In this document: positions 952 through 42,857 of the stretch, piece by piece
Layout of the letters: each line of letters opens with the position of its first letter
Numbering within the stretch: position 1 is the stretch's first letter
From: Escherichia phage FV3
Sequence record: NC_019517.1
DNA: 64,000 nt
Reading direction: 5' to 3' (one strand)
Notes under the pieces: model-generated
The model's database searches: none
What the model was told of the DNA's origin: nothing
The model's input: only the letters and a program-made list of their open reading frames with translations
Program-made: the position numbers and the translations under genes

Positions 952-1506
952 TTACTCCCCGCTGTCAATAGCAAGACTCATTGCAATACGGTATGCCTCT
1001 TCTAATGGTAAGAGTCTCCCCCACACATCCCAACCGACATCAAACTGCCTGCCAAACAACTGCTGTGTGGTTCCGTGAGCATGACCGAACAGTTGGACTG
1101 ATCCGTGAGGCTTTCTGTTCCACTTTGCAAACTGGTAATGGCTCATACAGATCAAATTCTTGTTGTGGCGAAGCTCGTAATAATCTACAACCTCATGACC
1201 GAACTCTTTCATAATTCTGACAGTCGTCCTTGTGTCATGGTTACCACGAACAAGAATAATATGTCCGTTCAACATATTTAGAACATCTGGGAGCAATTTG
1301 TTGATATTCTTATCCTTAGTGCATGCAATATCGCCCAAGTGAAACACAGTGTCTTCCGGTGACACAACAGAGTTCCACTCGGCGATGATTCCTGCATTCA
1401 TACTGTCAAGATTGCGATCATACTGAGATCTGTGTTTTTGACATGAATCAAACTCCATGACTCGCTGGTGGAGAAAGTGTGTATCGCTTGTTACAAAATA
1501 TTTCAT
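952..1506 (-). CDS. calcineurin-like metallophosphoesterase (Ser/Thr or polynucleotide 3'-phosphatase)
   Basis: motifs DTHF, GDI, GNHD, GHAHG typical of the calcineurin/lambda-phosphatase superfamily. Confidence 0.8.
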   Translation of the reverse strand: MKYFVTSDTHFLHQRVMEFDSCQKHRSQYDRNLDSMNAGIIAEWNSVVSPEDTVFHLGDIACTKDKNINKLLPDVLNMLNGHIILVRGNHDTRTTVRIMKEFGHEVVDYYELRHNKNLICMSHYQFAKWNRKPHGSVQLFGHAHGTTQQLFGRQFDVGWDVWGRLLPLEEAYRIAMSLAIDSGE

Positions 1507-1513
1507 ACATCCC

Positions 1514-1924
1514 TCATTTTAGTTTAATGCAGTTTTTAAGCTCACGCTCCATACGGTCCACAACCCTATTTGGAACATCATGAATGCTCTTATTACCGTG
1601 GCGGTTTTCAACCACGATCACAGTATAACTATACCCATGACTGATTGCCATGTCAACATATTCTTGCACATGTTTTTCTTTTGTAAACGTATTACTTACC
1701 ACGACACGGTCGTATCCCATACGCATCATATCTTCTACGTTATCTTTGCACCATTTTGCTGCAAGTGTTACTTTACTTGCATCCCAGTTGTAATTTCCAT
1801 CGTCGTCGTACCAGAACATGTCGTTCTCAAAATGTGGGTACAGCCCCTCTAAAGATAGTGCATTTGCCAGTGTTGATTTGCCAGAACCTGGTAGACCACG
1901 CACGATATATAGCATTTTAGACAT
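1514..1924 (-). CDS. P-loop kinase, polynucleotide 5'-kinase-like
   Basis: Walker A GLPGSGKST at N-terminus; size and layout like the T4 Pnk kinase domain; SD GGAGG upstream. Confidence 0.6.
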   Translation of the reverse strand: MSKMLYIVRGLPGSGKSTLANALSLEGLYPHFENDMFWYDDDGNYNWDASKVTLAAKWCKDNVEDMMRMGYDRVVVSNTFTKEKHVQEYVDMAISHGYSYTVIVVENRHGNKSIHDVPNRVVDRMERELKNCIKLK

Positions 1925-1952
1925 AGTATTCCTCCGTTTTAATTTTAATGGT

Positions 1953-1981
1953 AGTATACATAACTCTTTTGTTCATTTCAA
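1953..1981 (-). promoter_or_regulatory. sigma70-like promoter for minus operon (TTGAAA-N17-TATACT on minus strand)
   Basis: hexamers read on reverse complement, about 25 nt upstream of the kinase ATG. Confidence 0.5.
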
Positions 1982-2024
1982 GTGTTGACACGAGTTTATT
2001 TGTGTGGCAAGATAGAGTGACAAA

Positions 2025-2960
2025 ATGGCAAACGAGGAATGTATGATGAAGTATTTTAATGCAGATGATTTGGTGGATAAAGGTCTTGTAACCAGTCGGT
2101 ATTATCCAGATCTTGGATTAAAGATCTATAAATATGCCAGAAAAGTATTCTACAACAATTTATGGCATTTGTCTCCGCGTTTACTAGAGTGCCGAGGAAT
2201 TGTTGTCGGTAATGAAGGAAATGTTGTGGCATGGCCCTTCACAAAAGTGTTTAACTTGGGAGAAAATTCCACCAACCTGCCTGACAATAAACTTGTGACG
2301 GCGGTAGAGAAAAAGAACGGATTCCTTGGTGTGGTATCATCTCACAAAGGTGAACTGTTGTTCTCAACAACCGGGTCTCTTGATTCTCCATATTGTAACC
2401 TTGCAAAGGAAACAATCCAGGAGCAATGTGGTAATTTAGATCTTATCAAGAAGGTTATGGGCCATGAAAACATGACATTCATGTTTGAAATTTGTCACCC
2501 TTCAGATCCGCATATTGTTCAGGAAGATCATGGCGCATATTTGATAGGTTTCAGATATAATGATTCTGGAATAATGCTACCAGAAGCAGCTTTAGATGGG
2601 ATTGCCAAATACCTTGGTGCAAAACGTCCTCACACTGTGCGTGAAATTCCGTTCAGCTATGCAAAAGAATTAGCTGCAGAAACAAGAGGTGAAGGGTATA
2701 TGATTCGTAAGCCTTACTACCCTTATGATCTGCAGCTGAAGATCAAGTCTCCATACTATTTGGCACGGAAGGCCGTAATGAGGGGTAAAGCTTGGAAGAT
2801 TTGGGATAATGATATCTTTAAACGTGTTGACGAAGAGTTTTACGGCATGGTAAACTTCATTCGTAGAAACTACACAGAAGATGTGTGGAATTGCCTCCTG
2901 GAGCAGGAACGCCGTGAGATACTTGACTGCTATTTCCACAACGAGGACTATATGCAATGA
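2025..2960 (+). CDS. RNA ligase, Rnl1-like nucleotidyltransferase
   Basis: motif I KKNG (Lys about residue 97, as in T4 Rnl1 Lys99), motif IV EGYMIRK, motif V LKIK. Confidence 0.6.
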   Translation: MANEECMMKYFNADDLVDKGLVTSRYYPDLGLKIYKYARKVFYNNLWHLSPRLLECRGIVVGNEGNVVAWPFTKVFNLGENSTNLPDNKLVTAVEKKNGFLGVVSSHKGELLFSTTGSLDSPYCNLAKETIQEQCGNLDLIKKVMGHENMTFMFEICHPSDPHIVQEDHGAYLIGFRYNDSGIMLPEAALDGIAKYLGAKRPHTVREIPFSYAKELAAETRGEGYMIRKPYYPYDLQLKIKSPYYLARKAVMRGKAWKIWDNDIFKRVDEEFYGMVNFIRRNYTEDVWNCLLEQERREILDCYFHNEDYMQ

Positions 2961-3307
2961 AGAAGTTGATTGTGTGGCTGGATGACTTGAGAGATCCGTC
3001 AAATTATGGGCTCCCAGATGCTCTTTGGCTAAAGAATTCCTCTGAGTTTATGGATTTTATTAACGATAAGGGAAAGCTCTACAGGCGCGTTTCTGAGTGG
3101 CACATGGACAACGACCTTGGAGAGGTATTTGAAGGGTACGATTGCCTATCTATGCTGGAAGAAAAATTTGTATTTGGTAAGCCTCCTGTAGTTGACAACG
3201 TGAAGATTTTCGTGCATACTTCTAACCCATCAGCCGCTCGTAAATTCATGCTTGCTGCTGACTCGTTTAAAAAGTTTGGAATAGAGATTAAACAAAACAT
3301 CTACTGA
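2957..3307 (+). CDS. hypothetical protein (116 aa)
   Basis: track ORF overlapping stop of upstream gene; no recognised motif. Confidence 0.4.
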   Translation: MKKLIVWLDDLRDPSNYGLPDALWLKNSSEFMDFINDKGKLYRRVSEWHMDNDLGEVFEGYDCLSMLEEKFVFGKPPVVDNVKIFVHTSNPSAARKFMLAADSFKKFGIEIKQNIY

Positions 3308-3315
3308 GGACACTT

Positions 3316-4077
3316 ATGCGACGACTGATCATTATCTCCGGTGCTGGTTTGAGCGCTGAATCTGGTATCCCAACTTTCCGATCTGGTGGCACTGCAATGT
3401 GGGAGAATTTCAGCATCGATGAGGTGTGTAACATCCACACCTTTGCCAAGAACTACTATAAGGTACATGACTTTTACAATGCACGGCGTGTAGCTTTGGG
3501 GAGTGTTGAGCCTAACCTTGCACATCTCCGGATCGCTGAGTGGTATTCCCGCTGGTCTGGTCGTGTGATCAACCTGACCACCAATGTAGATGATTTGCTG
3601 GAGCGTGCTGGTGTAAAACATGAAGATATTTTGCATGTCCACGGGTATTTGCCAGAAATAGTTTATGAGGATGATGAAGGGAATGACGTCATTAAAGACA
3701 TTGGATACTCTGAGGTAGATGCAAGCGAGTATACTTGGGTCAAGCCTAATGTAGTGTTCTTCGGAGAAGTAGCTCCAAAGTATGTAGACATGTATGACCT
3801 GTTGACTTCTCTGACGAGCAATGATATGGTTATCCTTGTAGGGTGCTCCAACACAGTTATCAATTTTAACTGGGAGCTATTCCCTGCCTGTAATAAGGGG
3901 ACTAAACTACTGATCGTTAACAAATACGACTCACAGCATTTAGGGGAGAATGGCATTTCACGTAGTGACATTTACCAGTATGAGGATCGCGGAATCCCAG
4001 TTTGGTTTAACGGGGCGGTTGACGCTTTCTCTGATAAAACATTCATTGACATCGTAGAAAACTTTATGGAACTGTAA
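3316..4077 (+). CDS. Sir2-family NAD-dependent deacylase / ADP-ribosyltransferase
   Basis: sirtuin motifs GAGLSAESGIPTFRS, TTNVDDL, HVHG, PNVVFFGE; no Cys4 zinc-ribbon seen. Confidence 0.85.
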   Translation: MRRLIIISGAGLSAESGIPTFRSGGTAMWENFSIDEVCNIHTFAKNYYKVHDFYNARRVALGSVEPNLAHLRIAEWYSRWSGRVINLTTNVDDLLERAGVKHEDILHVHGYLPEIVYEDDEGNDVIKDIGYSEVDASEYTWVKPNVVFFGEVAPKYVDMYDLLTSLTSNDMVILVGCSNTVINFNWELFPACNKGTKLLIVNKYDSQHLGENGISRSDIYQYEDRGIPVWFNGAVDAFSDKTFIDIVENFMEL

Positions 4078-4091
4078 GCGGAGGCCTTTTA

Positions 4092-4805
4092 ATGCTGAAT
4101 ACTAAACTGATCGACAACCTGGAAAAACTGTCTCAGCCTGAAAACTACCTTTGGTCTGCCAACTGGGTGGAAAATTGGAACCGTGTAGCAGCTAAAGTGA
4201 AAAAATCATACACACCATTCGAACTTCAGCTGAGTTTCATTGAGGAAGAGTTCAATGAAGTTTTGGAAGAGTTGGAGAAAGGTGATGGTGGGGATCATCT
4301 CCTAAAAGAGGCCTGCGATCTTCACGTTGTCACAAGTTATGCCGCTTATCTTGTTAACGATAACCATGAAAAGTGGTCAAACCTGTTTGATAATCCGCGA
4401 GGTCTTAAGTTTAAGATCGGTGAATTTTATGATACACTGATCGCTGCGAAAAATACCTCTAAGCAAAGAGCGTCTGCTTACCGCTTAGCAGAGTTGTCAA
4501 CAGCTTTGCTGTTCCAGCTTCGCGGTGATGTGTGCGGGATGATGCGGAAGGTTCTAAAATCTAATGACAGCAAGTTTGCACGCGTCAACCATCTGCGGTA
4601 TTCACACGGTGCCAGTGCAGATATGCCTGCTGAACAACTCATCGAGTTGGAGATTAAAGATCTTGAGCGACGCTTTGATGGTCGCTATGAAGGTTTTGTT
4701 GCTAAAGAAGAATTCTACAACGGAAATAAAGTTATCATATTCCTCGACAGTAAAGGTAAGATTATGAAGCCTTCGAGCTTCAAGGATGTAACAGAATATA
4801 TTTAA
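4092..4805 (+). CDS. hypothetical protein, possible MazG-like NTP pyrophosphohydrolase
   Basis: EEEFNEVLEELEKGD...KEACDLHVV resembles the EExxE...ExxD pattern of MazG/all-alpha NTP-PPases; weak. Confidence 0.4.
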   Translation: MLNTKLIDNLEKLSQPENYLWSANWVENWNRVAAKVKKSYTPFELQLSFIEEEFNEVLEELEKGDGGDHLLKEACDLHVVTSYAAYLVNDNHEKWSNLFDNPRGLKFKIGEFYDTLIAAKNTSKQRASAYRLAELSTALLFQLRGDVCGMMRKVLKSNDSKFARVNHLRYSHGASADMPAEQLIELEIKDLERRFDGRYEGFVAKEEFYNGNKVIIFLDSKGKIMKPSSFKDVTEYI

Positions 4806-4811
4806 TAACAT

Positions 4812-4840
4812 AGCCGGGGTGATCCCGGCTTTACTTGTTT
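4812..4840 (+). terminator. rho-independent terminator
   Basis: hairpin AGCCGGG-GTGA-TCCCGGCT followed by T-rich tract just after stop at 4805. Confidence 0.6.
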
Positions 4841-5178: not shown

Positions 5179-5434
5179 TCTTGCTAAACCTGTAGAAGCA
5201 CACCAGTTTGACGGAAGCTCTTCATCAGTATCTGATCTGCAACGGTGGATTGATACAGGTGTGTTTACATCGTCACCTGTTCGAACCAGAGATATTCTTC
5301 GCATGTGTGAGCTTGTCGAGCCGTTTGGTAACCTGGTCTTGTACCAAGGGGATTGGTTAGTTGACTTTATGGGAGACTGGTTGGTAATGAGCAAAGAAGA
5401 GATGTTTAAAATTTTTAAGGAAGAGGCTGAGTAA
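5165..5434 (+). CDS. hypothetical protein (89 aa)
   Basis: track ORF, SD AAGGAGG upstream; no motif. Confidence 0.4.
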   Translation: MPLFNLAKPVEAHQFDGSSSSVSDLQRWIDTGVFTSSPVRTRDILRMCELVEPFGNLVLYQGDWLVDFMGDWLVMSKEEMFKIFKEEAE

Positions 5435-6717
5435 TGCATCAGATCAAAACAACACTGTACGCACTGAACAAAGATGGCAGCTACCAACAGTGGAAAGTAT
5501 TCACGGATGGTGATAAGGTTATCGTAGAGTTTGGCAAGCTTGATGGTAAACTGCAATACAAAGAGACGATCTGCACACCTAAGAACGTGGGTCGTGCCAA
5601 TGAAACTACAGCTGAGCAACAGGCTGAGCTGGAAGCGATCAGTAAGTGGGAAAAACAAGTCCGTCTGGGGTATGTTGAAAATATGGAAGATTGCGAGCAG
5701 GGCGTTGACCTTTTACCCATGCTGGTGCATGACTACCTGAAGCGTGGAAAGGCACTTAAATTACCTTGCTGGATCTTGCGTAAGTTAGATGGCCTTCGTC
5801 TACTTGTTGTTTTCCAAAATGGGGAGCCTAAATTTATTTCCCGTGGTAATAAGTCCTACCCTATTCAAGGAAAGCTTCTGGAGCAACTTCGTTCTTTCCA
5901 CTTCACCACCGGGATTAAACAGCTCGACGGAGAGATCTATATTCATGGTCTGCCTCTGCAGAAAATAGTGTCTCTTGCTAAACGGTGGCGCACACAGGAA
6001 GAGATTCAGGCCGAGATCGATAAAGACTACGAGGCAGATAAAAAACGCCGTCATGCCGCAATTAAGGCAGGCTTATCAACATACAAAAACTTCAATAAGG
6101 TAGATATCCCTGTTGATGTTGAGCCTGTTCGTGATGATTTGCGTTACGGAGGGTACTGTAGCTATGACTTAGAGTATCATATTTTCGACATCCCTAGTGA
6201 CAAGGTATGGTGGGATCCGGAAACAGAATCTGGACGATGCAAGGATCTTATGGATGCAGAAGATACCATTACCACTCTGATGCTTGACCATATCAAGGTT
6301 GTTGACGCAGAGCTTGCGTACACAGCTGATCATTGCGAAGAATCTGTTGGTGTATTCATGTCCGAAGGATATGAAGGTACTATCATGCGTAACTTCTGTG
6401 GTAAATACGAATACGGTCAGCGAACATCTGAAGCATTGAAATGGAAAAAGTTCAACGACGCAGAGGTGAAAGTTATTGACGTTGAGAAAGATAAGAATGA
6501 TGAAGGTGTTCTTATCTGTGTTGACAAGGAGGGTGTTGTTGTTAAAATGAAGATGAAAGGCACGCACGAGGAGCGTAGCTATGACAGGATGCAGGAAATG
6601 ATCGGCAAGTTTGTCACCTTCAAATATCAAGCAAGGACAGAAGACAACAACTACCAATTCCCGGTCGGTATCTGCGTCCGAAATGTTAATCCAGACACTT
6701 GGGAGGTGCTGGAATAA
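5434..6717 (+). CDS. ATP-dependent ligase (covalent nucleotidyltransferase), probably DNA ligase
   Basis: motif I KLDG, motif III LDGEIYIHG, motif IV EGTIMR, motif V LKWKK. Confidence 0.65.
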   Translation: MHQIKTTLYALNKDGSYQQWKVFTDGDKVIVEFGKLDGKLQYKETICTPKNVGRANETTAEQQAELEAISKWEKQVRLGYVENMEDCEQGVDLLPMLVHDYLKRGKALKLPCWILRKLDGLRLLVVFQNGEPKFISRGNKSYPIQGKLLEQLRSFHFTTGIKQLDGEIYIHGLPLQKIVSLAKRWRTQEEIQAEIDKDYEADKKRRHAAIKAGLSTYKNFNKVDIPVDVEPVRDDLRYGGYCSYDLEYHIFDIPSDKVWWDPETESGRCKDLMDAEDTITTLMLDHIKVVDAELAYTADHCEESVGVFMSEGYEGTIMRNFCGKYEYGQRTSEALKWKKFNDAEVKVIDVEKDKNDEGVLICVDKEGVVVKMKMKGTHEERSYDRMQEMIGKFVTFKYQARTEDNNYQFPVGICVRNVNPDTWEVLE

Positions 6718-6868: not shown

Positions 6869-7357
6869 ATGAAACTTGATAAAAATGTTCAACGAAAAGC
6901 TTTCTTGGATATGATCGCATATTCAGAAGGCACAGATAATGGTAGACAACCTACCAATGATCGGGGATACGATGTTATAGTCGGTGGCAAGCTGTTCAGC
7001 GATTACAGCAAGCATCCGGGTGTTTACGTTAAGCTAAATGCTAAACTTACCTCTTCTGCTGCTGGGCGTTACCAGATTTTGGAGAAGTTTGCTAAACACT
7101 ACATGAAACAGTTAGGATTACCAGATTTTGGCCCTGCCAGTCAGGACAAGATTGCGTTGCAACTGATCCGTGAGTGTAAGGCGCTCGATGATATTGATGA
7201 AGGTCGTATTCACCAAGCTATTTATAAATGCCGCAGCCGCTGGGCAAGCTTCCCACCACCGCCAGGGGCTGGAAAGCTGTACAATCAGCGAGCAGAAAGT
7301 ATAGACAAGATGCTGGATATCTTTAAGAAGTCAGGTGGAGTTGTTACGGATGAGTAA
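6869..7357 (+). CDS. endolysin, lambda R-type lytic transglycosylase
   Basis: near-identical blocks to lambda R: QRKAFLDM, SEGTDNGRQ, GYDVIVGG, GRYQ. Confidence 0.9.
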   Translation: MKLDKNVQRKAFLDMIAYSEGTDNGRQPTNDRGYDVIVGGKLFSDYSKHPGVYVKLNAKLTSSAAGRYQILEKFAKHYMKQLGLPDFGPASQDKIALQLIRECKALDDIDEGRIHQAIYKCRSRWASFPPPPGAGKLYNQRAESIDKMLDIFKKSGGVVTDE

Positions 7358-8033
7358 CGTGATTGACTGGTGGAGTGTCTTTAGATACGACACAGGCACT
7401 GGAAGGTTGTTTTGGAAGGACCCGCCAAAAAACAAACCTCAACTAGTGGGAAAGGAGGCTGGATGTACTAACATGGACGGGTACAGGGATATAGTCTATC
7501 GTGGCGTGCATTACTACAGGCATAGATTGGTGTGGGAGATGCATTATGGACCAATCCCAGAAGGGTATGAAGTTGATCACATAAAGCCACTTTTCTATTC
7601 CGATGGTGTTGCTGATGATAGGGTAGAAAACCTACAACTGTTAACACCAGAAGAAAACGCAAAAAAGGCGGCAGATGACGGATGCCTGGCACGTAAGATA
7701 CCTAAATCCAATACTGGACACTTGGGTGTATATTTTCATGCTAGGACTGGAAGGTATGCTGCTTTTGGTAAGGTAGGTCATTACTATAAGAAAGACCTAG
7801 GGGAGTACGATACCTTAGAAGAGGCCATTGCTGCTCAAAAGTCTTTTGAAAGTGGCACGTTTGTCAGGGAATATCGTGGACATCCTTTAGGGAGGGATAA
7901 ATCTAGAGGTGTCAGATTTGAAGCAGATAGAGGCAAATGGAAAGTAACTTTCAGAGGAAAAACGTTAGGTAGGTTTGACACCAAAGAGTCTGCTGAAGCG
8001 TGTTACGCAAAGGCTCTTGCTGAAAGATTGTAA
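7335..8033 (+). CDS. free-standing HNH homing endonuclease with AP2-type DNA-binding repeats
   Basis: HNH block EVDHIKP...DRVENLQLLTPEENAKK; two AP2-like repeats (GVYFHARTGRYAAFGK, GVRFEADRGKWKVTFRG). Confidence 0.8.
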   Translation: MELLRMSNVIDWWSVFRYDTGTGRLFWKDPPKNKPQLVGKEAGCTNMDGYRDIVYRGVHYYRHRLVWEMHYGPIPEGYEVDHIKPLFYSDGVADDRVENLQLLTPEENAKKAADDGCLARKIPKSNTGHLGVYFHARTGRYAAFGKVGHYYKKDLGEYDTLEEAIAAQKSFESGTFVREYRGHPLGRDKSRGVRFEADRGKWKVTFRGKTLGRFDTKESAEACYAKALAERL

Positions 8034-21360: not shown

Positions 21361-21639
21361 ATGAGCTGCGAAAAATCTTTTTTCATCATCATTTACGGTA
21401 AGGATAACTGCCCACATTGTGTAAGAGCAAAAGAATTTGCAGTCAGTAAAGGCATACCTTTCGTATACAAGACGCTAGGTGAAGGATACACAAAAGAAGA
21501 GCTTATCGAGAAGTGTAGCCCATTTGTTCCCAGAACGTTGCCTCAGATCTTCTTGGAAAGCAACCTTGACAGTATCCACATAGGTGGTGCTGACGATTTC
21601 ATCTCTTTTGTTAAGAATGGTTTTGGAGAGAAAAAGTGA
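21361..21639 (+). CDS. glutaredoxin/NrdH-like redoxin
   Basis: CPHC active site near N-terminus, 92 aa, between nrdB and nrdD. Confidence 0.75.
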   Translation: MSCEKSFFIIIYGKDNCPHCVRAKEFAVSKGIPFVYKTLGEGYTKEELIEKCSPFVPRTLPQIFLESNLDSIHIGGADDFISFVKNGFGEKK

Positions 21640-22496
21640 AAGTTGTAAAACGGGACGGTAGAGAAGAGTTTTATAACGGAATTAAGGTGATCAAGGCGGC
21701 AGAGTCCGCCTTACTTGAGTCTGGACATACTGAAGAAGAAGCTTACCGGATTGCCTGTGCGGTTAATGAAGTTGTTGCCAACAATCTGCCAACTGACCAG
21801 TGCACGATCTCTGTAAAAAATATCCATATCCTTGTTGAAGATGCTCTTATGGATATGGGTTTAAAATGTGCAGCCAGAGAATACATCCAGTATAGACAGA
21901 CAAGAGATAATAACAGAGAGGCAGGTGGAAAACTGCTTGCCGATATTAGTGGCTTCTTGGATCGTACTTGTGATGAATTTACAAAAGAAAACGCAAATAA
22001 GCCTACTAATCATGTACACACTCATCGTGACCTGCTTGCAGGAATCCTTAGCAAACATCTTGCATCAACACAGATCCTGCCAGACCGTGTCTCAGAAGAG
22101 CACAACAAAGGCTTCATCCATGTGCATGATCTTGACTACCTGATCAGTCCGTTAACAAACTGTTGTTTGGTGAATTATCCGGATATGCTGGAAAACGGAT
22201 TCAACATTGGCAACGCCCATGTCAGTAAGCCGAAGTCAATAGGGGTTGCAACAACAATCCTTAGCCAAATCTCTAGTGCAGTAGCTAGTGCTCAATATGG
22301 CGGTCAGACCATGAGTCATATTGATCATTATTTGGCACAGTATGCTGAAGCAACTTATGAGAAGAACCTTAAATTTTGTCAGGAACATTGGTTGCCAGAT
22401 GCTGAGACTGTTGCAATGCAAATGACAGATAAAGACGTGTTTGATAGTATGCAAACTTTGCTCTACCAAATCAATACGTTAACTTCTGTCAACGGT
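21636..22496 (+). CDS. nrdD: anaerobic ribonucleotide reductase NrdD, exon 1
   Basis: ATP cone VVKRDGREEFY; ends ...INTLTSVNG; track stop TAA is the first three intron nucleotides. Confidence 0.8.
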
Positions 22497-23294
22497 TAAC
22501 AAACTGGCCGTTGTAAAACTCTCCTAACCTCATAAGAGGGGTCGGTAAATCCGGCTAACGGGGAACGCTAAGGCGAAAGCTATGCCAATCCCGTGACTAG
22601 TTCTTACAGGAGTTGGAACGGTTGTAACGACTAACGAAAGGCAGAGATGCTTGACAAACATTTCTGAACCGAGTAGTGTAGGGGTTAGTTGAAATACTAA
22701 CTTCGAAAGGGAGAGACTCTATGAAAAAGATCATTCTTAATGGTGAAGAATCGAACTACGTGATTGATGAGGTGGGAAACGTATACGGAAAACGTGGAAT
22801 GCTGCACCCCATATTGTGGGGAGGTTATGGAAAAGGTAACAAGCATGTTAAACGCCGCTATATGTATTCTTTCAACCACAAAGGTAAGAAGATTCGAATC
22901 CAAACTTCAAGGGTTGTTGCCTTGTATTGTTTGCCAGATGTCCCAGAAGACCCTGAAAACTGGGAAGTGAATCATAAAGATGGCAATACATTGAATGATC
23001 ATCCGTCTAACCTAGAGTGGGTTTTGCCGGAAGATAATAAGAGACATGCTTTCCGAACAGGGCTTTGTCCAGGCAAGTGCTACAGGAAAGTGCAGGCATA
23101 CCAAGGGAAAACCTTGGTGGGTGAATATCCTTCACTCTATGCCTGTGCAAAAGCCTTAAATTTGAACGTAGGGAACGTCCATAGGGCTATCGAAGGAAAT
23201 GCCGAAGGTAAGCATCTCACAATAAAGGGTTATTATCTTATTGAAGTAGAGTAAGAGATAGTCTGGCCCTGTGGAAACACAGGGGTGGAGACAG
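22497..23294 (+). mobile_element. group I intron in nrdD carrying an HNH homing endonuclease ORF
   Basis: P1 pairing CAACGGT with GGCCGTTG, R-like GACTA and S-like GAGATAGTC elements, P9 hairpin with GAAA loop, terminal G; boundaries inferred. Confidence 0.65.
22721..23254 (+). CDS. intron-encoded HNH homing endonuclease
   Basis: HNH block EVNHKDGNTLNDHPSNLEW; C-terminal DNA-binding module; SD GGGAGAG. Confidence 0.85.
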   Translation: MKKIILNGEESNYVIDEVGNVYGKRGMLHPILWGGYGKGNKHVKRRYMYSFNHKGKKIRIQTSRVVALYCLPDVPEDPENWEVNHKDGNTLNDHPSNLEWVLPEDNKRHAFRTGLCPGKCYRKVQAYQGKTLVGEYPSLYACAKALNLNVGNVHRAIEGNAEGKHLTIKGYYLIEVE

Positions 23295-24554
23295 CAGACT
23301 CCATTCATCACATTAAGTTTAGGGCTGGATACTTCGGTCTTTGGTAGAATGATTACCAAAAACTACTTGAAAGTTCACAAAATGGGTCTTGGTGAAGAAC
23401 GGATCACACCTGTGTTCCCTAAAGTGCTGTTCTTCTTAGAGGAGGGTGTCAACATGAACCCTGGGGATCCTAACTACAATTTGAAACGATTGGCCCTAGA
23501 ATGCTCTGCAGAGCGGATTTATCCTGACTTTGTTTCTGTTCCGCTAAATCGTAAAGTGACAGGTTCAACAGACGGCAAAGTAACAAGCATGGGATGTAGG
23601 TCGTTCCTTGGCAAATACGTTACCCCGGAGGGTGATGAAAAATACCTTGGCAGATTCAACTTGGGTGTTGTTAGCCTTAACCTACCAATGATTGCGGCAA
23701 AAGCTAAGACGGAAGGTATTGATTTCTTTGCAGTTCTTGACGAATACTTGGATCTTGCATACGAGGCTCACCTTGTAAGGGTTAACCGTCTAAAAGGAAC
23801 AAAGGCAGGGCAGAACCCTATCATGTGGTGTGAAGGAGCTCTTGCTCGCCTGGATCCTGAAGAGAGTATCGATAAACTCTTCTATGACGGGTACGCTTCC
23901 ATCAGTATTGGGTATATTGGTGTGTATGAAACCTGTCAGATTTTGGGCAGAGAGGGTGACAAGGCTTTAGCTCTTGGAATCCTTCAGCACATGAAAGATG
24001 CTTGTGATCGATATAAGAAGGAAAGTGGACTAGCATTTAGCTTGTACGGCACACCTTCTGAGAGTTTATGCTATAAAGCTGCAACCTGTCTGGATCGTGA
24101 ATACCCAGAAGTGTTGAAGCACGAGCATGAATACCTCACCAACAGTTTCCATCAGCCGGTATGGATCAATAGCTCGCCTTTTGATAAGTGGAAGTATGAG
24201 GAAGGTTTTGCTATGATCTCCTCTGGTGGCAACATTGGGGACATAGAGACACCGAATCTGAAAAACAACTTAGATGCTTTAGAAGCTCTTGTTGATTTCG
24301 GATATAAACATATTATGTATTTTGGTATTAACCAGCCTGTGGATAAATGTCTTAAGTGTGGATTCTCTGGCGAGTTCAGTGCAACAGCTAAAGGCTTTGT
24401 ATGCCCAGAGTGTGGAAACCATGAAGAAGGAACGATCAGTGTGATCAGACGCGTATCCGGGTATCTGTCCAGTCCAAACTCCCGCCCTTACAATAAGGGT
24501 AAGCAAGCTGAGGTTATAGAACGGGTTAAGCACTACGGAAGTTGTGGTTGCTGA
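23295..24554 (+). CDS. nrdD: anaerobic ribonucleotide reductase NrdD, exon 2
   Basis: QTPFITLSLGLDTS aligns with E. coli NrdD QVPFSSLNFGTDTS; Zn ribbon CLKCG...CPECG; glycyl radical motif RVSGYL. Confidence 0.8.
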   Translation, partial: QTPFITLSLGLDTSVFGRMITKNYLKVHKMGLGEERITPVFPKVLFFLEEGVNMNPGDPNYNLKRLALECSAERIYPDFVSVPLNRKVTGSTDGKVTSMGCRSFLGKYVTPEGDEKYLGRFNLGVVSLNLPMIAAKAKTEGIDFFAVLDEYLDLAYEAHLVRVNRLKGTKAGQNPIMWCEGALARLDPEESIDKLFYDGYASISIGYIGVYETCQILGREGDKALALGILQHMKDACDRYKKESGLAFSLYGTPSESLCYKAATCLDREYPEVLKHEHEYLTNSFHQPVWINSSPFDKWKYEEGFAMISSGGNIGDIETPNLKNNLDALEALVDFGYKHIMYFGINQPVDKCLKCGFSGEFSATAKGFVCPECGNHEEGTISVIRRVSGYLSSPNSRPYNKGKQAEVIERVKHYGSCGC

Positions 24555-24557
24555 TAC

Positions 24558-24586
24558 TTGACAAAAGCCACAAGGATGTGGCATAT
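24558..24586 (+). promoter_or_regulatory. possible sigma70 promoter TTGACA-N18-CATATT
   Basis: consensus -35, weaker -10, upstream of micro-ORF and nrdG. Confidence 0.4.
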
Positions 24587-24617
24587 TGTTGTCACACAGT
24601 AAACTAGGAGGTGCAGT

Positions 24618-40328: not shown

Positions 40329-40508
40329 CACACAATTAGCTGCCCGGCTAAAGTGCTGGAAGCACCTATAACACATCTTTCAACTAAATTTCCTACCACC
40401 ACAATCACTTACCTCCCACACATGACTGTTTGCTTGTTTAGTGAGCAGTCATTCCTTGACATTCTTGCCTATCCTGATAAAATTAAGTTCTTCTCTTTTC
40501 TTTTACCG

Positions 40509-40535
40509 AGTAATTCGGGTTTTCTGTTCTCTTCG
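40509..40535 (+). terminator. possible terminator closing the plus-strand block
   Basis: hairpin CCGAGTAATTCGG followed by T-rich tract (approximate). Confidence 0.35.
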
Positions 40536-42559
40536 GTTTGAAGGGGTATGGAGATACACCTGAGTGAACAGGGTGAACAACCGAACCTTTAGCTATGGCA
40601 TTAGCATGGCGAAGCGGACGGGTGACGAAAGAGGGGCCGGAGGACACCAGTCACTGCCATATGGTATATGGGTGATAACCTGAAGAGTCTGAATAAGTGT
40701 TTAAGTACCAGTCAGAGGAAAAGGTGAATGGTAGCCGAAGGGGGAGGGGGGTTTCTTGTATCTTTAATTTGTATACTTTATATACACTTGTAAACCAATT
40801 CAATTAGAATATGGATACCACACAAAGTGGATAGAGGCAAATATTCCCTATTAAACTTGAATTATTTATAGAAAATACCACAACACTGCTTAAGTCTTTG
40901 ATTTTACACACAAATATTACAAATATCCTGCCTCTATATTTAACATACCTGTAACATATTCCATACTCTCCCTGATTGATCAATTCCCCAACTACATCCC
41001 CATATTTTCCCTTCCTGTACTACCCCTGCCCCGCCGGGAGTCCCGTCATATCTGGCTTTCCAGCAAATATCACACCCACAAATATCATTGCCTGAAGAGG
41101 GTTTCATCCCATAATACCTGCCTTACCCGAAGAGCGCTTCATACACCACGTAAATTTTTTAATTGACCTGCAATTTTCCTGCAGACCCACCCCCTGCCCA
41201 GCCGGAGAGGTTGGCTTTTCCCACACAGGCCTGAAGAGTCAGCCAGAAATATCTGAAGGGGGTCCAGTTCTACCACGATTTTGACCTGACCTACAGGAGC
41301 GCTGCCAGGCGGACGAAATGGGAATACTTCTCATTCTTATAACAATTCTCAAATATCGGGGCAGTGAGGCAAATTAATAGGCGAGGCCGTTCACACAGTG
41401 GCACAACATTTGCAAGCTATTTTGCGGGGGTGAATGAGAATACCTATCATTGTGAGAATAGTTATCATTACGGGCAATTTAACATAATACCCATTATGCG
41501 CACCACTGGCGATACATACAGGGATTGATAACATGGGTTACTGTTTACGCATATAACAATTGTATTTCTTATTATTTGTGGGGGATATAGTTAGCAACCA
41601 ATAGATTAGTTATTAACCTGCGGACTTCTGACCGTCTAGACGTCCAAACGCCCACACCACAAGGATTATACATACACTCCTGCATGTAAACAGGGCCGCA
41701 AAAATGCTACCATACCAGTTTGTAAATTTTCCATGCAGCACTTGACAAAGAGGAGAAAAACTTGTCTGACACACTGGACACCTTATACACCTTATACACT
41801 TTCGATACAATAACGATTGTTATTATTTCATGTTTCACTGTTCACGTATAGATTGTTCCTGCATAGACTGTTTACGCCTGGATAGTTTACACCTTGACAG
41901 TTTACGCAGATATGATAAGCCATGACATTCGTTTGCATAGTTGCCTTATTGTTACAGGTAAAACAATTACATTGTTAACTATTTCTTATCTTTCTCTTAG
42001 TCATCTAATGATTCCAGTCAGTATAGTTATGTACAGTAAACATTAGACGACTAAATATTTCTCTGATTATAGTAACCTATCGTGACAATTTCTAACTGTT
42101 TACGAAAAATGTTGACACCTGGGCAGGTTTATGTTATGCAGTTTGTACGAATAATTATTTTGTACAGGTATTGACTATTCCGTTATTCTGTGGTTGGAAT
42201 AAATACTTTGCAGGCTATAGAATGGTGATCGTACGTGGATTCTGAGATCTGTCGGCTATAGTTACACCCGATTTTTCACGTAGGACACGCTTTTTGGTTT
42301 GTGTAAGTGTATGACTTATAAGGGTTTTTAATTGTTGACAGTATACTGAAGATGTGCATCAGGTTAAATTTTGTGCAATAGCTGCATTACGTGCAATTTT
42401 GGGAGAGAAAACGGGTAAAAATAGCACCGCTACCACACAATGAAAGGTTATGCAATAGCTATTTTACATGTATATTTGTACAGTGTGCGGGATTGATGGC
42501 TCGTCAATTATTCCACTTGTCAGGTAGGGCCGTTTATGGTAGGAAAAGAGCAGACAAAA
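40536..42559. other. gene-free repeat-rich region between convergent blocks; candidate origin, regulatory or ncRNA locus
   Basis: no credible ORF over 2 kb; motif CTGTTTACG in at least 5 copies (41540-42100), CCTGAAGAG x3, GAGAAYRNTTATCATT x2. Confidence 0.5.
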
Positions 42560-42590
42560 AGAAAGGGGCCTAAGCCCCCTTGATAATGTT
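42560..42590 (-). terminator. rho-independent terminator closing the minus-strand block
   Basis: on minus strand AAGGGGGCTTAGGCCCCTT hairpin followed by TCTTTTTGTC. Confidence 0.6.
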
Positions 42591-42593
42591 GTA

Positions 42594-42857
42594 TTATTTG
42601 TTGCTCATCCAGTTTTCCCAAGCTGCCTGATAATCTGCCTCACTGCGGCGGATCTCTTCTTGTTCTTCAAGCCGGATCTCTTCTTCCAGGTACCCAAGGA
42701 TATCGGATTTTTTGGTCTGGCGTAACATCCAATCATCTTTTTTACGAGTAAAGATCTTGTACGCTTTCTCGCAAACCTCTTTTTTACTACCTTTTTGGAC
42801 TTCAAGAACTTTGTAGGCCATGTACTGAACTAGTTTGAGCTGATCAAGACGTTTCAT
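42594..42857 (-). CDS. hypothetical protein (87 aa)
   Basis: track ORF. Confidence 0.45.
   Translation of the reverse strand: MKRLDQLKLVQYMAYKVLEVQKGSKKEVCEKAYKIFTRKKDDWMLRQTKKSDILGYLEEEIRLEEQEEIRRSEADYQAAWENWMSNK

Follow-up and report, generated by a model that had tools for sequence, protein, structure and literature searches.

A zinc-free CobB-type sirtuin in a predicted RNA-repair gene cluster of Escherichia phage FV3

A 64,000-nucleotide stretch of Escherichia phage FV3 DNA (sequence record NC_019517.1), referred to below as the window, contains at positions 3316–4077 on the + strand an open reading frame (ORF) encoding a sirtuin of 253 aa. Sequence, profile and structure comparisons make it near certain that this protein is a phage-restricted, zinc-free offshoot of the CobB-type (class III) sirtuins. 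Its gene lies among genes for RNA end-processing enzymes, and we tentatively favor the reading that the sirtuin may serve as the NAD+-dependent step of a phage RNA break-repair module, placing this role ahead of plain protein deacylation.

The sirtuin ORF is intact, begins with ATG, and is preceded by a GAGGA Shine–Dalgarno sequence 6 nt upstream of the start codon. It matches Pfam SIR2 (PF02146) over model positions 1–178 of 180 with E = 8.3e-27 and 94.7 bits (cut-off 24), which is far beyond chance, and it was assigned to PHROG 2162 (E = 8e-109). A deposited product with 100% amino-acid identity bears the name "SIR2 NAD-dependent protein deacetylase". The 2-kb region around the gene shows 99.7% identity to Escherichia phage EPFV3-03/2025, and 94–99% identity to about 85 further rV5-like phages (Vequintavirus). 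Comparison with a 93%-identical homolog gave a dN/dS of 0.08, corresponding to purifying selection. Judged from its sequence, this gene of an rV5-like phage is real and functional.

A first-pass annotation, made from the letters of the window without database searches, had described a clear sirtuin core from four motifs. All four are present, namely GAGLSAESGIPTFRS (aa 9–23, nt 3340–3384), TTNVDDL (aa 88–94, nt 3577–3597), HVHG with the catalytic His (aa 107–110, nt 3634–3645), and PNVVFFGEV (aa 144–152, nt 3745–3771). Across 68 diverse sirtuins of the clade, GAG, S16, F21-R22, N90, D92, H109-G110, FFGE, G176xS178 and N202 do not vary. Membership in the Sir2 superfamily is indicated by the PF02146 score above the gathering threshold, by the invariant motifs, and by a predicted fold with TM scores of 0.7–0.85 to sirtuin crystal structures. 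Since conservation extends to every NAD+-binding and catalytic residue, the protein should bind NAD+ and release nicotinamide, acting as an active NAD+-consuming enzyme in which His109 activates the ribose hydroxyl. It is a single-domain protein lacking any sensor or effector fusion, and it is acidic (pI 4.7, net charge −16), as is the whole clade (median pI 5.1).

In a single-sequence search of the PDB, SIRT5 (1.3e-21) and E. coli CobB (1.5e-21) ranked first. A profile built from the 68 clade sequences likewise ranked CobB first (1e-29), followed by Sir2-Af2/Af1, SIRT5, Sir2Tm and SIRT2. The AlphaFold2 model of the sirtuin (pLDDT 89.4, pTM 0.88) gave CobB 1s5p as its best Foldseek match, with TM scores of 0.76 on the query and 0.85 on the target. 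The Y-x-x-R pair (Y54, R57), a class III hallmark for acidic acyl groups, is invariant in the 68 clade members, and the phage FYNARR aligns with FYNARR in CobB and FYHYRR in SIRT5. Nearest similarity and this pair together place the protein in class III (CobB/SIRT5), with which it also shares GAGxS, FR, N/D, the catalytic His, FGE, size and a two-domain architecture.

The phage protein differs from CobB and SIRT5 in being only 26–30% identical to them, in lacking the zinc-ligand Cys residues, and in having a longer C-terminal region (aa 203–253). The clade also departs from canonical sirtuins at usually conserved positions, with TQNID replaced by TTNVD (Gln to Thr), GTS by GCS (Thr to Cys), and VYPA by VINF. 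The protein falls outside the CobB equivalog, since all seven NCBIfam models scored below their curated cut-offs, including the CobB models NF040867 (120.9 vs 243) and NF001753 (102.3 vs 320). Placement among the sirtuin classes, which the first-pass annotation had proposed as a check, thus puts the protein beside CobB rather than with SirTM or the defense sirtuins, yet below the CobB equivalog cut-offs. The same annotation had likened it to divergent classes acting as ADP-ribosyltransferases or NADases, and here the searches spoke otherwise, since those by sequence, profile and Foldseek all returned class III deacylases. No SirTM or defense sirtuin was found among the best 60 PDB sequences, and the defense-Sir2 models of PADLOC gave only a non-significant partial match of 13.5 bits. 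Both the PDB rankings (sequence, profile and fold) and PADLOC led us to reject a placement with SirTM or defense Sir2. Recent capture of a host cobB was also considered, and was ruled out by the 26–30% identity and by the near absence of the clade motifs from bacterial and archaeal genomes.

The region corresponding to the zinc ribbon contains no Cys. It comprises the 33 residues between HVHG and PNVVFFGE (aa 111–143, YLPEIVYEDDEGNDVIKDIGYSEVDASEYTWVK, nt 3646–3744 on the + strand), which stand in place of a Zn(Cys)4 ribbon and align with the Cys-bearing zinc modules of E. coli CobB (VRCSQSG...KCHCCQ), SIRT5 and Sir2Tm. The core and Cys positions of CobB and the N-terminal half of SIRT5 in this alignment were checked against PDB-derived alignments. 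The whole protein has three Cys residues (C38, C177 and C192). The four zinc-ligand Cys in two pairs that mark canonical sirtuins (classes I–IV and U) are therefore missing, bearing out the earlier observation that the Cys-x2-Cys pairs of the module could not be seen.

The absence of zinc ligands extends through the clade. Among 120 representatives of 90%-identity clusters (49–100% identity), the module could be delimited in 111, and in these it holds 0–2 Cys and never two CxxC pairs. Close relatives at the phage loci fetched for this work likewise have 0–2 Cys in the module, without two CxxC-type pairs. Conserved in their place are the motifs D(V/I)GY and (D/N)PxxYxW(V/C/A)K. In the AlphaFold2 model, strands 110–118, 124–128 and 142–146 have pLDDT values of about 95, so that the module is predicted still to fold into the three-stranded form of the former zinc ribbon, with conserved aromatics probably replacing the metal as its core.

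Distant relatives in jumbo phages (L071, L072) retain four Cys together with (D/Q)IGY and a canonical TQN(I/C)D, which argues that the loss of Cys in the zinc-free clade is derived. A search of 1.84 billion proteins was used to examine the two changes together, with 95 sequences parsed from the best 150 representatives of 50%-identity clusters. Where the second position of TxNxD is Thr, 29 sequences have two or fewer module Cys and 4 have three or more; where it is Gln, the corresponding numbers are 8 and 54. The association is strong (Fisher 4e-13, uncorrected for phylogeny), so that zinc loss and the Gln-to-Thr switch go together. Ten longer, fused relatives from the same search carry only tandem Sir2, WG-repeat or leucine-rich-repeat additions, and contain zinc modules. 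The loss of zinc ligands is thus clade-wide, derived, and coupled to a Gln-to-Thr change in the NAD+ ribose-binding motif; this, and the predicted folding of the Cys-free module, are new here.

The sirtuin gene belongs to a compact cluster at 952–4805. Upstream on the + strand lies a T4 Rnl1-type RNA ligase of 311 aa (2025..2960; Pfam RNA_lig_T4_1, E = 5e-15; PHROG 562, E = 1.6e-65; TIGR02308 match below its cut-off). It is followed by a 116-aa cREC (cyclic-phosphate processing receiver domain) protein (2957..3307, +), whose start overlaps the Rnl1 stop in ATGA and whose end is separated from the sirtuin start by 8 nt. This flanking gene had been noted in the first-pass annotation as present and of unknown nature; its existence stands, and it is now assigned to cREC by PF20274 (E = 4.5e-14; 53 bits, cut-off 27) and to PHROG 1479. 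The other flank had been called possibly MazG-like, in agreement with our searches. This gene begins 14 nt after the sirtuin stop and encodes a MazG-like nucleotide pyrophosphohydrolase of 237 aa (4092..4805, +; PHROG 671, E = 5e-22; weak Pfam PRA-PH match, E = 0.084), annotated as a nucleotide pyrophosphohydrolase in phage HMD-6. Directly after its stop is a terminator-like GC-rich hairpin followed by a T-run (4812..4830, +; 8-bp stem with 6 GC pairs; a consensus match only), which is likely to mark the end of an Rnl1–cREC–Sir2–MazG transcription unit.

Divergent from Rnl1 on the − strand are two further genes. The first encodes a P-loop polynucleotide-kinase-like protein of 136 aa that consists of the kinase domain only (1514..1924; Pfam AAA_33, E = 6.5e-11; PHROG 2071 and PHROG 505, "polynucleotide kinase"). 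The second encodes a calcineurin-like metallophosphoesterase of 184 aa (952..1506; Metallophos_2 and Metallophos, E about 3e-7; PHROG 547, E = 1e-51). Downstream of the unit is an ATP-dependent DNA ligase gene (5434..6717, +), named from the annotation of near-identical phages; DNA ligase is a conserved downstream neighbor in Vequintavirinae-like phages, lying 1.0–2.5 kb past the sirtuin in 15 related loci. The Rnl1–cREC–Sir2–MazG unit, the kinase and the metallophosphoesterase together make up a predicted module for healing and sealing RNA ends. Scanning the window with Rfam and for tRNA genes gave no match. In the related phage HMD-6, phage tRNA genes are clustered some 3 kb past the phosphoesterase, at a place just to the left of the window and outside it.

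Both the sirtuin clade and its RNA-repair context have been described before, in print and in annotation resources for phages. Iyer, Burroughs, Anantharaman and Aravind (2022; Viruses 14:1977, PMC9503650) described a sirtuin-centered predicted RNA-repair system, type 2, with Escherichia phage V5 and Proteus phage Mydo as prototypes, and predicted that the sirtuin of the phage V5 neighborhood acts like KptA/Tpt1. They defined type 2 by a phage-clade sirtuin with a T4-like RNA ligase, cREC, a nucleotide kinase and a MazG-family pyrophosphatase, a calcineurin-like phosphoesterase being optional (PMC9503650). All six genes lie within 952–4805 of the window, so that the same gene set in the same phage group (Vequintavirus) was re-identified here independently. 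There is no difference in gene content; the zinc-Cys loss and TTNVD are added here, neither zinc-cysteine loss nor the TQNID-to-TTNVD change being mentioned in the main text of that paper (PMC9503650), and in both studies the function is predicted. A literature search, whose coverage left out most subscription journals, found no experimental study of any phage sirtuin.

In the proposed pathway, anticodon nucleases of the host or of a competitor, and other metal-independent RNases, would leave 2′,3′-cyclic-phosphate and 5′-OH ends. The kinase would phosphorylate the 5′ end, cREC and/or the metallophosphoesterase would open the cyclic phosphate, and Rnl1 would seal the break. A residual 2′-phosphate on the RNA would then be removed by the sirtuin through chemistry common to sirtuins and Tpt1/KptA. 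Both enzyme types proceed in two steps, in which an oxygen nucleophile reacts at C1″ of NAD+ and O2″ then reacts with the adduct (PMC11417386). In the phage enzyme, attack of the oxygen nucleophile on C1″ would expel nicotinamide, and the ribose 2″-OH, activated by His109, would attack the adduct in the second step. The tight operon, the identification of all five partners, and the recurrence of the arrangement in relatives support an RNA-repair role. A more specific proposal, which we regard as somewhat doubtful, is that the zinc-free phage sirtuins are the first sirtuins with RNA as the physiological substrate, and that they replace Tpt1/KptA non-homologously in removing 2′-phosphates (or another anionic end group) when nuclease-cleaved tRNA is repaired.

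The likeness to Tpt1/KptA lies in the proposed NAD+-dependent, two-step, nicotinamide-releasing chemistry, in the association with RNA ligase and end-healing enzymes, and in a complementary distribution among phages. The phage sirtuin differs in its unrelated fold (a Rossmann-type sirtuin fold rather than an ADP-ribosyltransferase fold) and in its acidity, and its RNA activity is putative. Given the unrelated fold, it is not a member of the Tpt1/KptA family, and an E. coli KptA query returned other genes in other phage groups. These KptA homologs occurred in 98 phage records, from jumbo phages of Erwinia, Dickeya, Klebsiella and Serratia and from Clostridioides and Bacillus phages; the same search of phages found none in T5-like or Vequintavirinae phages. 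This complementary distribution of sirtuin and KptA is compatible with functional replacement.

To place the cluster among relatives, neighborhoods were surveyed at 63 IMG/VR and 7 GenBank loci, with flanks of up to 10 kb searched by phmmer with the window proteins and other queries. About 15 loci, from Vequintavirus, Mydovirus, Henunavirus and their relatives, have the order metallophosphoesterase–Rnl1–(cREC)–kinase–sirtuin–DNA ligase–MazG, and NAMPT is often found some 7 kb upstream. In about 31 T5-like loci, a HAD_SAK_2 "Swiss-army-knife" RNA-repair phosphatase follows the sirtuin instead, 0.6–1.1 kb downstream (Pfam E = 2e-20). In Serratia phage BF, genes for an NMNAT-like protein, NAMPT, a 2H/Acb1-like protein, the sirtuin and a Nudix–cREC fusion stand in a row. 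The sirtuin is thus genuinely associated with RNA-end enzymes, and the association is seen again in three lineages or more, in which these enzymes differ. That the same clade adjoins other RNA-end enzymes in two unrelated lineages (T5-like and BF) further supports the RNA-repair role. In phi92-like phage EmilieFrey, a cluster of NAMPT–PrsA and cREC–phosphoesterase–Rnl1–kinase–DNA ligase lies 30 kb from the sirtuin, and Justusliebigvirus carries a sirtuin and a full cREC–metallophosphoesterase–Rnl1–Pnk cluster within one genome. As a separate observation, tandem pairs of DUF7415 genes follow the sirtuin in T5-like phages, with or without HAD_SAK_2 (L002, 6641–7471; L037, 10891–11759).

Several observations weigh against a role in RNA repair. 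About 25 of the 70 loci have no recognizable RNA-repair gene within 10 kb of the sirtuin, and operonic linkage to RNA-repair genes is therefore not obligatory. These are phi92-like, 7-11-like, some Klebsiella T5-like and jumbo-phage loci, and in such lineages the conserved neighbors of the sirtuin are only DUF7275/DUF7277, DUF7415, NrdD and proteins of unknown function. Three sampled KptA neighborhoods (Klebsiella FBKp24, Erwinia RAY and Clostridium phiCD211), in which phmmer with the query set and Pfam on 10 neighbors gave nothing informative, showed no likeness to the sirtuin cluster. Repair of the T4 type by Pnkp and Rnl1 leaves no 2′-phosphate, so that a Tpt1-like step would be called for only if 2′-phosphate ends were the product of cREC or of the metallophosphoesterase. 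The acidity of the clade is unusual for an RNA-binding enzyme. The acyl-lysine pocket also appears to be retained. CobB residues A76, Y92, I131 and V187, which were engineered in PDB 6rxm/6rxs, correspond to phage C38, Y54, V91 and V146; the phage residues either match those of CobB or replace them conservatively, and within the clade they vary little or not at all. A conserved pocket with FFGE and Y-x-x-R would suit a lysine deacylase, whose substrate tunnel is long and narrow, and would not be expected where a 2′-phosphate on an RNA backbone has to be reached. These features and the acidity fit a deacylase better than an RNA-binding enzyme.

We consider it quite possible, if second to RNA repair, that the phage protein is an ordinary CobB-like lysine deacylase, removing acetyl or, in view of the Y-x-x-R pocket, succinyl/malonyl-type groups from lysines of host or phage proteins during infection. 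Metabolic enzymes, the translation machinery, or the catalytic lysines of the neighboring RNA and DNA ligases could be among its targets, and its position in the cluster would then reflect co-expression rather than a common pathway. The best sequence, profile and structure matches (CobB at 1e-29, Sir2-Af1/Af2, SIRT5 and Sir2Tm) are all proven deacylases; the catalytic His, the FGE loop and the hydrophobic pocket are kept and Y54/R57 are invariant; the phage protein is acidic, as is CobB; and several lineages carry the sirtuin without an RNA-repair neighbor. All database annotations also say deacetylase or deacylase, although these are transferred names and not tests. However, the scores far under the NCBIfam CobB cut-offs (121 vs 243 and 102 vs 320) and the TQNID-to-TTNVD, GTS-to-GCS, VYPA-to-VINF and zinc-loss changes depart from canonical enzymes, and E. 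coli already has CobB, so that a duplicate needs a special rationale. Deacylation also leaves unexplained the repeated, independent juxtaposition with cREC, 2H, Nudix–cREC and HAD_SAK_2 proteins.

NAD+ salvage genes are frequent around these loci. In many lineages NAMPT, commonly accompanied by PrsA or an NMNAT-like gene, adjoins the sirtuin or the RNA-repair cluster or lies within 8 kb of it; examples are Serratia phage BF (L007), Erwinia phage Hena1 (L009), and loci L069, L070, L073 and L079. No NAMPT was found within the 64-kb window. The proximity of NAMPT fits recycling of the nicotinamide that the sirtuin would release in RNA repair. It is also consistent with heavy NAD+ turnover, and hence with a mono-ADP-ribosyltransferase acting on host targets, or an NADase remodeling or depleting host NAD+, with a Macro-domain protein as the reversing partner. 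We regard the ADP-ribosyltransferase or NADase explanation as improbable. A Macro gene is indeed present in the genome (54659..55216, −; 185 aa; Pfam Macro 25.2 bits, cut-off 22; PHROG 335, E = 2e-59, labeled "phosphatase"), with the Streptomyces macrodomain 5e3b, YmdB-like 5m3i and the Appr-1″-p phosphatase 6lfu as its nearest PDB entries. The first-pass annotation was thus right that a distant Macro gene exists, but its suggestion of a natural partner for the sirtuin is not borne out, as the gene lies 51 kb away on the opposite strand. SirTM and Macro genes, unlike those of the phage, are adjacent in one operon. Loss of the zinc ribbon is known also in non-deacylase sirtuins, which would suit an ADP-ribosyltransferase or NADase.

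The phage sirtuin shares with SirTM and with the defense Sir2 proteins (ThsA, DSR, SIR2-HerA, SPARSA) the Sir2 fold, NAD+ use, and a Macro gene somewhere in the genome. It is related to them by fold only, with none among the best 60 PDB sequences and no significant PADLOC match. It lacks an adjacent Macro gene and sensor or partner domains, and keeps a fully conserved deacylase-type pocket. It is thus not of the SirTM class (class M), given the unlinked Macro gene and the PDB ranking, nor a defense-Sir2 NADase (Thoeris ThsA, DSR1/2, SIR2-HerA, pAgo-SIR2), being a small single-domain protein of a virulent phage. A host-dependent phage would also gain little by depleting NAD+. A published survey found that the phage sirtuin clade is not coupled to Macro (PMC9503650). 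Although its gene is unlinked to that of the sirtuin, the Macro protein could scavenge the ADP-ribose product of the sirtuin, whether O-acyl-ADP-ribose or phospho-ADP-ribose.

The neighborhood of the sirtuin in Serratia phage BF bears on a further explanation. The BF gene annotated as "RNA ligase" (L007, 5281–5727) encodes a 2H phosphoesterase, matching Pfam Acb1 at 3.6e-15 and 2′-5′ RNA ligase at 1.4e-4. The match to Acb1, an anti-CBASS family, raises the alternative that parts of the sirtuin neighborhoods degrade nucleotide immune signals. The sirtuin might act on some other NAD-linked or acylated substrate, such as 5′-NAD-capped RNA, a tRNA bearing an acyl or aminoacyl group, or an immune signal derived from NAD; Nudix or MazG enzymes and cREC would then process the product. 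The BF Nudix domain belongs to the Nudt16-like decapping type. Cleavage of nucleotide pyrophosphates is common to MazG-like and Nudix enzymes, and these properties, together with the Acb1-like protein, would suit such a substrate. The argument is purely contextual, finds no precedent in a class III sirtuin, and does not improve on the other ideas in accounting for the conserved lysine-type pocket; we rate it the least probable of the explanations considered, and retain RNA repair as the preferred one.

To investigate the occurrence of the clade, tblastn was run against 50,697 phage records, of which 1005 contained relatives of the sirtuin. They include Vequintavirinae, T5-like Demerecviridae, Mydovirus, Phapecoctavirus, Justusliebigvirus and Salmonella phage 7-11, as well as jumbo Vibrio and Serratia phages. 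In a set holding one genome for each of 185,579 bacterial and archaeal species, the clade peptide motifs occurred in only two contigs, both from metagenome-assembled genomes, suggesting that the zinc-free clade is essentially phage-restricted. The Sir2-like protein of phage T5 (T5.102) and the homologs grouped in PHROG 2162 belong with the window sirtuin in one zinc-free clade, with 58% identity and with TTNVD, YxxR and DVGY...DYxW in common. T5-like phages differ in the neighbors of the gene, which are the HAD_SAK_2 phosphatase and DUF7415 proteins and not the Rnl1/cREC/kinase set.

Public records wrongly label some homologs of the sirtuin (P0067, H47, H49) "tail assembly protein", "nicotinamide-nucleotide adenylyltransferase" or "endolysin". 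In addition, 18–25 GenBank records labeled "Campylobacter phage" (host C. jejuni) match the sirtuin region of E. coli Vequintavirus, and their cREC proteins (for example in A140, C2 and C15) are 88–98% identical. The host labels of these records are probably wrong, or the isolates contaminated.

With about 1000 genomes carrying it, the clade appears to be among the most widespread NAD+-consuming enzymes of virulent enterobacterial phages, and its carriers include phages of therapy and biocontrol that are T5-like, rV5-like or phi92-like. If the RNA-repair role is true, sirtuin chemistry would extend from protein acyl-lysines to RNA, phages would have a Tpt1-independent way to undo tRNA-cleaving defenses, and the cREC domain would gain a function. 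If the protein is a plain deacylase, phages would reprogram host or phage protein acylation. On either reading, an enzyme often encoded beside NAD+ salvage genes would consume NAD+, a metabolite central to many anti-phage systems. The predicted zinc-free module further suggests that the small domain of a sirtuin can fold without metal, which is relevant to sirtuin engineering.

Three other features of the window were recorded. An HNH homing-endonuclease ORF (7335–8033, +) overlaps the end of a lysozyme-like gene (6869–7357); it is absent from the corresponding site in the 99.7%-identical EPFV3 and flanks the lysozyme gene at its opposite end in HMD-6, and thus looks like a mobile insertion. 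At about 21600–24600 (+), the anaerobic ribonucleotide reductase NrdD is annotated in a near-identical phage as two ORFs with a winged-helix ORF between them, which could reflect interruption by an intron, an intein or a homing element. Finally, the ORF-poor region of about 2 kb at 40400–42600 shows a switch in gene orientation, a GC content down to 0.35, and a sign change in GC skew. Four 16-mers resembling ACTGTTTACGCATATA occur at 41540, 41837, 41867 and 41897, the last three following one another at intervals of exactly 30 nt, and the region is a candidate replication origin or regulatory region.

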